Below the pieces are notes generated by a model that worked only from the letters and a program-made list of their open reading frames with translations, did not search any database and was not told the DNA's origin. Positions 21,759 to 61,807 of a stretch of 64,000 bases of DNA are shown here, piece by piece. The stretch covers positions 512,001 through 576,000 of the forward strand of contig CM000435.1 of the NCBI GenBank assembly GCA_000165345.1, in the 5' to 3' direction. Made by a program: the position numbers and the translations under genes. How positions within the stretch are numbered: the stretch's first letter is position 1; every line of letters starts with the position of its first letter.

Positions 21759-23668
21759 CTATAACCTTTTCTGCTCATTTTTTCCATATTTCATAATGAT
21801 TTCTGAAACCTTGGGGTTGTTAATGGCTATGGACTTTAAAGAAAAAACTGCAGCTTCTCTTAATAGTGGGTGACTTTCATCAACAATAGTTGTACATTCA
21901 ATTAACATGCTGATTCCTTTAGGAAAAGTTAAGAGGTCTAAAATTATATTGAAAACTTACCATCTTGATTTTGAGAGAATGAATTTTGGAGTTGAACGTT
22001 CCCATAGCAAATTGTAGAAATTGCTTGAATAATTGAAGCCATAGAGATTTCCTCGCTGACTAGTTTCCATGTAGCTTTTATCTCTTCAACTATAATATGA
22101 TTGGGACAAATTAAATGTCTCCTAAACTTTAGCATGATTCTCAGCAAGTCTATAAGGCTAATATTGACTTTACTAAAGAAATCAATATTACTTTCATCTT
22201 TAGGGGTACTAATTCTTAAAACAGAAACCCATCCTTTAATATTACCAAGCTTTGATATGCTGAACTTTACTAAATTTTTATTTTCCGATTTTAAGGACCA
22301 ATCTTCAATCTGAAGATTAATAAATTGCTCTAAATAGGAAACTCCCACTTTTAATTCTGAAAGAATTGTATCGAAGATTCCATCTAGAAGGAAAATTTGA
22401 GATATTATATTTTTATCAACCAATTCCTGTACATTTTGTTTCAAGTTAGGATTAGTTTCTATTTCAACACAAATTTCAAGCAAACAGTCTTTAAATTCGT
22501 GTTCAGTTATAATAGAAGTCGAAAGGAGTTTTTGGAGAATAATAATTTCTTTTGTTATTTTCGCATCTGAAATATCTATATAATTATTTTCTAACATTGA
22601 TAATTTAACAAAAGGCTCCTGCATTGTTAGGTAAATAAGTGAAGCATCACATTCGATAGTAGACTCTTCGGAATGTTTATAAAAATATAAATCACGAAAT
22701 GTACATGGATTTTCGGATAGCAAATGCTTGAAAAAAAAGAATATCCATTCTGATGATTTTAAGTTCTGAATAGTCGTATGTTTCAGTGTGTTAAAATACA
22801 TCGAAATTGCGACAAAAATAAAACATCCAAATAGTTCTTTTTTACTTATAATCTCTTCCAAAGTAACTGGCCTGTTTTTAATTAAATTGTAAATAAGATG
22901 AAATGTGCATGCAACAGTAGATGTTTCAATATTAATGCCTTGCAAATGCCCTAGAGACAAAGAAATAAGCTCAAATAAATATATATTAATACAACCAAAT
23001 GGATATATTGTCTTAAACAAGTATTCCTGAAATTTTATTAATCATACGAGCTAACTATTTTGTTACTTACTTGATAATCTGTGTCACTGTCAATAGAAAT
23101 GTTCGCTAATATCTGTAGAAACCTGCAACTGAGAAGCAAGAACTCATTGAAATGATAAGCATTATAGGGCAAGCCTTCTGGGGATCGATGTTCTAATACT
23201 TTTAAAATTTCGTATGAAACTAGGCTTAATAGCCCCGTATTCTCTTCATTCCGGAATTTAATATATATAAAATAGTTCAAATTTTTGAATATCTTAGAAT
23301 TGGAAATTATCTTTCTATTTTCAAAAGAAATAGTTGATATATTTCTAATTATCCCCAGCAAAATAGATAATTCGGATAGGAGCTTTAATTCAATAGGAGT
23401 GAAGCCTTGTAGTTGAAAAGATTCTAGAATAACTTCAGTAAGTTCCAATATAGTCCCTAAATATTTTGAACATTGAAATAGTATAGCTTCTTCGCTAGCA
23501 GATCTCTATACAAAATAAGAGCAAATTATTTATCAATAAGCAAATAATTGGTGCTATAATTCAATATCTTACCTTTAATATTTCCTTTAATACATGAAAC
23601 GGATCACTTTCTTTTCTTCCAAAATAGAGCTTTAGCTCTTCCATGTAATCAAAATATTTCTTTTTCAT
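21759..23668 (-). CDS. ATXN10: Ataxin-10-like armadillo-type protein, four exons
   Basis: Exons 23668-23573, 23505-23071, 23026-21961 and 21916-21759, giving 584 aa. Introns are 67, 44 and 44 nt, all with GTAAGT donors. The last exon encodes ...GISMLIECTTIVDESHPLLREAAVFSLKSIAINNPKVSEII, which resembles the ataxin-10 homology domain. Confidence 0.6.
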
Positions 23669-38140: not shown

Positions 38141-38805
38141 GAGTCTCGTCTTCTGGCGGGTCGTGCTAAATACCTTTTAAAACTTCTTTCTATAGTAACT
38201 GAGTGATTCTTCTTCTTATTCTAGATCAATTATATTTTGTAATCATTTTAGAATTTATATATTTTGAGACTGCCATCTGCGCATTTATCTATGGCATGAA
38301 TCCCAGGGTTTCATCGGACTTTCATGATGGAAACTGAAACTAAAACTGAGTGTTTATACAAGTTTCACAACTTGTACTAAGCAATATTCATGCCGACATT
38401 AAACATAATTGGTGACATTTTGTTTTACATTGCCACCTCAAAGGAGTAATCAGGACCCAATTATTAATCATTTGAGTTATTGAGGTAGTTATTGCTCCTA
38501 AATATTTTTATTCACTTCATTTGAGAAGCCAGATGTTTATGAGATTTCTTAAAATAGATAGGCCAGTCTAGTTATATGTCTTTACTAATATGTTCAATTC
38601 CGAATGATATTGTTTTCTTCTCTAGGCTAAATTTAATTTCTTCTATTGAACTGCATTCCCGCTCGATCCTTCATACATTTCCTTGACCTGCTGAATATTT
38701 TCTGTAGAAATGATAGATTTATTATTCAAACAAATAGTTGGATAATAAAATAAATTAATGATTATAACTATAGTTCAATTGTATTAACTTCTGTTTTTAA
38801 GCTAA

Positions 38806-39542
38806 ATGGTATGTCAAAAAAGTCCACTGAAGATTTTTATTATTAATTTGCAGGGTGTAGCTAAAAGAACTAGAAAATTTGCAGCGGTGAAACGCATTTT
38901 GAACCCCAATGATAGTAGAGTTAAACAGTAAGTTAACCAAGAAGTTCACTTTCAGCAAATATTTCAATTTCATGTAGAAATAAGCAAAGTAACAAAGTAG
39001 ATGCCCGCAATGATAGTAATGATAAACTAAGAGAAGTGTAAGTTTTAAAACTATTAAACCGTTCTTAATAATATTCCTTTAGGCCAAATGTACCTTCTAG
39101 CTTGTTTTTCAATTATAACAATAATTTGGGCCCTCCCTTCCACATCCTACTCGATACCAATTTTATTAACTTTTCTATACAGCATAAACTAGATATATTT
39201 AAGGGAACAATGGATTGCCTCGTAGCTAAGTGTATCCCTTGCATTACTGATTGTGTAATAGGGGAACTCGAAAAGATGGGTCACCGTTACAACTTGGCTT
39301 TGAAACTAGCTAGAGATCCCAGATTCAAACGTCTGCACTGTCTGCATAAAGGGACTTATGCGGACGATTGCATAGTGCAAAGAGTAACTGAACATAAATG
39401 TTACATAGTGGGAACGAATGATACCGAACTAAAGAGGCGCATACGTAGAATACCAGGCGTCCCAATAATGTATGTTACCAACCATAAATATTCGATTGAG
39501 AGACTACCGGAATCACTAGTCTCTGTTCCGCTGAAAAAGTAG
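38806..39542 (+). CDS. FCF1: rRNA-processing PIN-domain protein FCF1, four exons; exon 1 is the ATG only
   Basis: Exons 38806-38808, 38854-38927, 38978-39037 and 39083-39542, giving 198 aa. Introns are 45, 50 and 45 nt (GTATGT, GTAAGT, GTAAGT). The spliced product M|GVAKRTRKFAAVKRILNP...REVPNVPSSLFFNYNNNLGPPFHILLDTNFINFSI... is colinear with the 198-aa human FCF1 (recalled from memory). Confidence 0.85.
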
Positions 39543-59372: not shown

Positions 59373-59793
59373 ATGGTGAGTTGTCTTTGGAGAAAACAAT
59401 ATATAAGATCACTATTAAGCTAGATAGCAGGTAAATAAACTATTAAGGACATTTAGGCCTATCTTTGATAGGGTACTGGTACAGAGAATACATCCAAAAG
59501 CTGTCACGAAAAGCGGAATTTTACTTCCTGAGTCAATAAATAAGGGAGGCAAAGGTTTCTTTATGGCAAAGGTGTTGTCAACTGGAACTGGGAAAATAAA
59601 TCAGTTTACAGGTGAATATAATAAATGTCTCTTGAAACCCGGAGATACAGTGATTGTTCCAGAATATGGTGGAATTCATATTCAACAATTTTACGAAGAA
59701 GTTAATCATGGGACTTCATTAGATTTAATGGTTTATAAAGAAGAAGATATTTTGGGTATTTTTGAAAACGATAGTAAGAATAATGTCAATTAA
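59373..59793 (+). CDS. HSP10: 10-kDa chaperonin (Cpn10/GroES-type), two exons; exon 1 is the ATG only
   Basis: Exons 59373-59375 and 59431-59793, with a 55-nt intron GTGAGT...gatagcag; 121 aa. The product M|VNKLLRTFRPIFDRVLVQRIHPKAVTKSGILLPES...GDTVIVPEYGG...YKEEDILGIFE shows the GroES fold signature. The in-frame codon just upstream of exon 2 is TAG, so splicing is required. Confidence 0.8.
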
Positions 59794-61459: not shown

Positions 61460-61807
61460 TCACTCTTCACCTGCTTCGTTACTAATATTGAAGTACCTAA
61501 CTTCATAGGAACCTTTGCTTGTTGCAACTACACGTAGAAAGTCTCTAATTTGTTGTTTCTTAAGGTATTTCTTAGTTAGATACTTTAGGTATCTCTTTGA
61601 CATTGGAACTTCGCTCAATACAGTAATACGACCCTTTTGGCGAGAGATCTGAATCTTCGTGCCTAGCTGTCCGCACTTACCATCCACTTTTATGCGATCA
61701 TGGAAGAACTTCTCGAGCCCAGATGCATCGATGATATTATCTTGCATAGGAGCAGTGCAGTCAACAATGAAACGTTGAGTTTTATGAGCCTTTGTTATAG
61801 GAGCCAT
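61460..61807 (-). CDS. RPL22: 60S ribosomal protein L22 (eL22)
   Basis: 115 aa from the first ATG (the track start at 61837 is TTG). [20 protein letters not shown]...[14 protein letters not shown]...[12 protein letters not shown]...VRYFNI matches eL22 over its full length. Confidence 0.9.

Follow-up and report, generated by a model that had tools for sequence, protein, structure and literature searches.

The window analysed here, a 64,000-nt stretch of Cryptosporidium parvum chromosome 7 with a G+C content of 32 %, contains the locus of FCF1/Utp24, which is arranged in four exons on the forward strand. A four-exon model in which a 45-nt phase-0 intron follows directly on the start codon is, with high confidence, the best explanation of this locus. 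When the four coding segments are joined (Table 1), a CDS of 597 nt is obtained, which encodes 198 aa beginning MGVAKRTRKFAAVKRIL; the complete product reads MGVAKRTRKFAAVKRILNPNDSRVKQNKQSNK...SLVSVPLKK, followed by the stop. The three introns measure 45, 50 and 45 nt, and each starts with GTA(T/A)GT and ends with YAG, so that all are of the GT...AG type. Around the first of them (positions 38804–38877, with vertical bars at the exon–intron boundaries) the window reads aaATG|GTATGTCAAAAAAGTCCACTGAAGATTTTTATTATTAATTTGCAG|GGTGTAGCTAAAAGAACTAGAAAA, which agrees with the aaATG|GTATGT...ttgcag|GGTGTAGCTAAAAGAACTAGAAAA quoted in a preliminary description of this DNA. The intron begins directly after the ATG and is followed at once by codon 2, the junction is unambiguous once GT–AG ends are imposed, and the candidate branch elements CACTGAA and TATTAAT are visible within it.

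Table 1. Positions in the window of FCF1/Utp24, its divergent neighbour and the Cpn10 gene
Feature	Position	Strand	Basis or remark
FCF1/Utp24 exon 1, 5' untranslated part	38727–38805	+	Minimum extent; start of the intron-less contig, colinear to the ATG
FCF1/Utp24 start codon, sole coding bases of exon 1	38806–38808	+	ATG invariant in nine Cryptosporidium assemblies
Intron 1, phase 0, 45 nt, GTATGT...TTGCAG	38809–38853	+	Missing from the intron-less contig; position conserved, 44–60 nt elsewhere
Exon 2, residues 2–26 (GVAKRTRKFAAVKRILNPNDSRVKQ)	38854–38927	+	Spliced model, PDB alignment, intron-less contig
Intron 2, 50 nt, GTAAGT...ATGTAG	38928–38977	+	Spliced model, intron-less contig
Exon 3	38978–39037	+	Spliced model, intron-less contig
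Intron 3, 45 nt, GTAAGT...CTTTAG	39038–39082	+	Spliced model, intron-less contig
Exon 4 through TAG stop, encoding the PIN/Fcf1 domain	39083–39542	+	Pfam matches, intron-less contig
Ubiquitin-L40 gene	37624–38010	-	Divergent neighbour of FCF1
Cpn10/GroES gene, ATG-only first coding exon	59373–59793	+	tblastn and annotated identity
Cpn10 ATG	59373–59375	+	Spliced model
Cpn10 intron, 52 nt, GTGAGT...ATAG, then CAG	59376–59427	+	Spliced model
Cpn10 exon 2	59428–59793	+	Spliced model

An exact-protein look-up recovered a contig of 676 nt (ENA ERZ21845938, NODE_10611) that translates the 198-aa protein uninterrupted. Its sequence corresponds to window positions 38727–38808, 38854–38927, 38978–39037 and 39083–39542 joined end to end, with 676 of 676 bases identical. 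All three introns are precisely missing, and 79 nt of 5' leader colinear with the genome are present before the ATG. The precise absence of the introns is the one feature that points to an RNA origin for this contig, which looks like a spliced transcript, and it likewise suggests that intron 1 is removed from transcripts. The three junctions proposed in the preliminary description (38808/38854, 38927/38978 and 39037/39083) are all present in it, which answers the check suggested there. The description had also held that the start codon makes up the whole of the first coding exon; this stands for the coding sequence but not for the physical exon, which according to the contig comprises at least 82 nt (the 79-nt leader plus the ATG). 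The 3' end of the contig coincides exactly with the end of the FCF1 TAG stop, which may be due to chance or to the way the assembly was made.

Within the leader covered by the contig, an upstream ATG at 38758 opens a nine-codon reading frame (38758–38787, MIITIVQLY and a stop) that ends 19 nt before the FCF1 ATG. Further upstream, about 150 nt from the ATG, the element TTCCCGC (E2F-like GCGGGAA) is found at 38656–38662, within the divergent intergenic region of about 800 nt that FCF1 shares with the ubiquitin-L40 gene. We take this candidate element to resemble motifs reported upstream of Cryptosporidium genes.

The identity of the product was established by profile and structure-database comparisons. 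The Pfam Fcf1 profile (PF04900) matched residues 90–186 with 114.4 bits (gathering threshold 21.4; E=3.3e-33) and was covered over positions 1–99 of 99, and the PIN_9 profile matched residues 67–176. In phmmer searches of the PDB, the best match was human FCF1 (7mq8_SL, 198 aa, E=6.4e-83), with query residues 1–190 aligned to chain residues 1–192, and yeast Utp24/Fcf1 (5wlc_SL, E=2.1e-75) was also aligned from residue 1. Joining the ATG to position 38854 therefore gives the conserved FCF1 start, as had been proposed, and the human length of 198 aa given there was likewise borne out. The paralogue Utp23 reached only E=2.3e-07, so that full-length orthology is with FCF1 and not with Utp23. The best 120 database matches were Fcf1-domain (PF04900) proteins, and the functional names given by their sources were FCF1/Utp24.

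Compared with FCF1 of animals, fungi, plants and alveolates, the C. parvum protein is about 60 % identical (58–68 % for matches outside Cryptosporidium), and the family motifs DTNF, GELEK, YADDC and TND are retained. The residues that would form the acidic set of the PIN domain, D70 (LLDTNF), E107 (IGELEK), D140/D141 (YADDC) and D158 (TND), are identical in the human and yeast proteins. Between its N-terminal basic motif and the PIN domain the protein has a slightly shorter spacer of divergent sequence; otherwise nothing distinguishes it from its family. Its composition includes 9.6 % Lys and 4.5 % Ser. The product is predicted to be a PIN-domain endonuclease of the small-subunit processome and, like its yeast and human orthologues, would act in 18S rRNA processing.

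Expression of the gene can be outlined from this model. Exon 1 supplies a leader of at least 79 nt and ends exactly with the ATG, and exon 2 opens with the codon for Gly-2. The three short GT–AG introns are presumably excised by the ordinary U2-type spliceosome, after which the mRNA would encode 198 aa starting MGVAKRTRK, the conserved N-terminus of FCF1. Scanning ribosomes would be expected to initiate at the AUG that closes exon 1. The G at position +4 is unchanged by splicing, because intron 1 and exon 2 both begin with G.

The same three-intron model is already present in public annotation. The deposited C. parvum protein CPHLJ_7g2290, labelled 'hypothetical protein', matches the spliced product at 100 % identity over its full length, and in CP141124.1 the gene is annotated over 737 nt, the length of 38806–39542, so that neither protein nor gene span differs from the current model. 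Identical 198-aa C. parvum entries are found under KAL5367545.1, QOY40546.1, TRY50733.1 and WKS78917.1, and the name 'rRNA-processing protein Fcf1/Utp23' is also in use. The gene order ubiquitin-L40, FCF1, eIF-5A, AAA ATPase is shared by the chromosome-7 records of C. parvum and by other Cryptosporidium species. The preliminary description, with its two further introns of 50 and 45 nt and its 198-aa product, thus re-derived an existing model, and its interpretation of the locus is supported with two small corrections, one being the extent of exon 1.

The second correction concerns its statement that reading through from the ATG does not give the FCF1 N-terminus. This was imprecise: in the window, intron 1 is in frame and free of stops, and read-through yields M-VCQKSPLKIFIINLQ-GVAKRTRK..., in which the motif is merely displaced by 15 residues. 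A product of 213 aa, with the 15 extra residues between Met1 and Gly2, could accordingly be proposed as the main one if the intron were kept, or often kept. We consider this very improbable. The contig described above does not contain the 45-nt segment, and the 213-aa protein was not found in a collection of 15 billion proteins. The insert would shift an N-terminus whose alignment to the human and yeast proteins starts at residue 1, and the segment itself carries consensus GTATGT and YAG ends.

Comparison of intron 1 in nine Cryptosporidium assemblies, the window included, bears further on this point. The intron measures 45 nt in the window, 46 nt in GCA_007210665.1 (L001; identical protein), C. 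meleagridis and the chipmunk genotype, 44 nt in C. bovis and C. ryanae, 59 nt in C. muris and 60 nt in C. serpentis and C. andersoni. The ATG|GT donor and the AG|GG acceptor are invariant in all nine, and read-through is disrupted in eight, by a stop or by a frameshift, the window being the exception. Intron 1 varies in length and sequence and gathers indels, unlike exon 2, which shows substitutions without indels and encodes a nearly constant peptide. The difference between the window and L001 is a run of six A (38815–38820) against one of seven (L001:3010–3016), so that a single base separates the in-frame intron of 45 nt from the out-of-frame one of 46 nt. Because of this nine-assembly pattern and the absence of the 213-aa protein from the collection, splicing of intron 1 appears to be the conserved, selected state in Cryptosporidium. 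A retained-intron isoform would nonetheless be translatable in the C. parvum strain of the window, where intron 1 is open and in frame.

A different start was also considered, in which a far-upstream mini-exon is spliced to the acceptor at 38854. Deposited models for C. muris (MKFL-G) and C. andersoni (MSSVK-G) take this form, each joining a distant short exon to the homologous, shared acceptor (L010:1501–1675 and L011:1501–1935, respectively). Both species nevertheless carry the conserved ATG|GTATGA 59–60 nt upstream of that acceptor (L010:1607, L011:1865), and in C. serpentis, a close relative, the annotated first coding exon consists of the ATG only. The MKFL and MSSVK extensions are shared neither with each other nor with any other FCF1, and in the intron-less contig the 79 nt above the ATG follow the genome without a further junction. 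The two deposited first exons are, on these comparisons, probably prediction artefacts, and an upstream mini-exon in C. parvum is very unlikely.

Just as implausible is a shorter gene that starts at an internal Met or in the last-exon reading frame (110 aa from MDCLVAK, or the 156-aa 'partial' protein): GenBank models of this kind exist for C. hominis TU502, C. ubiquitum and C. parvum Iowa II, but such a product would lose the first PIN acidic residue (D70) together with 87 conserved N-terminal residues aligned to human and yeast FCF1, the contig holds the full spliced CDS, and together with the homology of exons 2 and 3 it effectively refutes this reading. In C. hominis and C. ubiquitum the entries start at Met88 and have 110 aa, and the 2004 Iowa II entry (XP_001388385.1, 156 aa) has no start codon and begins with YSFRPNVPSS inside intron 3.

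These truncated entries fit the earlier observation that a naive ORF track fails at the start of this gene. The mechanical ORF list gives a 41-aa ATG-initiated frame at 38806–38931 and, as had been reported, a TTG-started piece at 39102–39542, which encodes 146 aa. Gene starts in which an intron follows the ATG are missed by ORF-based or ab initio calls, and the older FCF1 entries of C. parvum, C. hominis and C. ubiquitum are truncated. RNA-seq-based re-annotation of C. parvum raised the proportion of intron-containing genes from 4.3 % to about 10.8 % (PMC4637869), and a later evidence-based re-annotation introduced more than 1,500 updates (bioRxiv 10.1101/2021.01.29.428682). The FCF1 model belongs to this already completed clean-up. 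Beyond annotation quality, the start-codon intron is of little importance and raises no new biological question.

In three more distant lineages, too, FCF1 has a phase-0 intron between its first two codons. The Cystoisospora suis model has one of 1275 nt (ATG|GTGAGC), that of the sea anemone Actinia tenebrosa one of 88 nt (ATG|GTAAGT...GCTAG|GGA), and in Vitrella brassicaformis an intron of 111 nt (ATG|GTGAGA...CGCAG|GCG) was placed by tblastn and direct reading of the sequence. FCF1 of Babesia microti is intronless. The second intron falls after CDS nt 77 in Cryptosporidium and after nt 71 in Cystoisospora, so that the two positions differ.

The FCF1 intron fits a class that has been described. 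Nielsen & Wernersson (2006) reported that phase-0 introns at the start codon are enriched in short, lysine-rich, conserved proteins, and either a boundary of a 5'-UTR module or an ATG|G proto-splice site has been proposed for them (PMC1626468). The C. parvum intron corresponds in being a phase-0 GT–AG intron directly after the ATG, with a second codon that begins with G, in interrupting the gene for a short, lysine-rich and highly conserved protein of ribosome production, and in a position that is conserved over large distances, here from Cryptosporidium to a cnidarian. It differs in that it lies in a genome with introns in only about 10 % of genes (PMC4637869). The 2006 survey covered vertebrates, arthropods, fungi and plants, with apicomplexans outside it, and FCF1 adds an apicomplexan example to the start-codon introns of short, conserved, ribosome-related proteins. 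The feature is otherwise ordinary, because the model is already annotated and start-codon introns are described and widespread.

The codon-1/2 position, which recurs in these distant lineages, is old and probably ancestral, and not the result of repeated gains at ATG|G proto-splice sites. Extending this, one could speculate that a position of ancient origin, seen in apicomplexans, a chromerid and a cnidarian, has been kept in the intron-poor Cryptosporidium, in which case the exon formed by leader and ATG would be functional, for example in splicing-dependent expression of ribosome-biogenesis genes, and that the A6/A7 change in C. parvum has opened a 45-nt intron whose retention could give a 213-aa isoform. 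We regard this combined proposal as unlikely. Removal of intron 1 to give the 198-aa protein is the reading retained here.

The occurrence of a start codon fused to a splice donor was also assessed over the whole window. The motif ATGGTADGT was found three times, with 1.08 expected, and a count of three was also reached in 7 of 100 shuffles. The motif alone is uninformative, and the case for FCF1 is made by homology, by the intron-less contig and by conservation across species. The two other occurrences, both on the reverse strand, were rejected as gene starts: that at 61675 falls within an RPL22-like coding stretch, and that at 21955 looks like an internal exon–intron junction. The surrounding sequence of the latter (21900–21965, reverse strand) reads ATG|GTAAGT...CCTAAAG, an apparent internal junction of another gene.

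The same ATG|GT architecture had been noted at the Cpn10 gene of the window, and this was confirmed. Human HSPE1 gave a tblastn match at 59431–59763 (E=4.6e-15), and the spliced model, in which the ATG is followed by a 52-nt intron, encodes 122 aa (MQVNKLLRTF...) identical to annotated C. parvum GroES, including QOY40558.1. Read-through of this intron meets several stops, and the 2004 Iowa II model of the gene is without Met. The intron ends in two adjacent acceptor sites, TAG|CAG (59425–59430), of which C. parvum models use the first site (MQVNK..., 122 aa) and C. meleagridis the second (MVNK..., 121 aa); this difference reflects either NAGNAG alternative splicing or inconsistent annotation.
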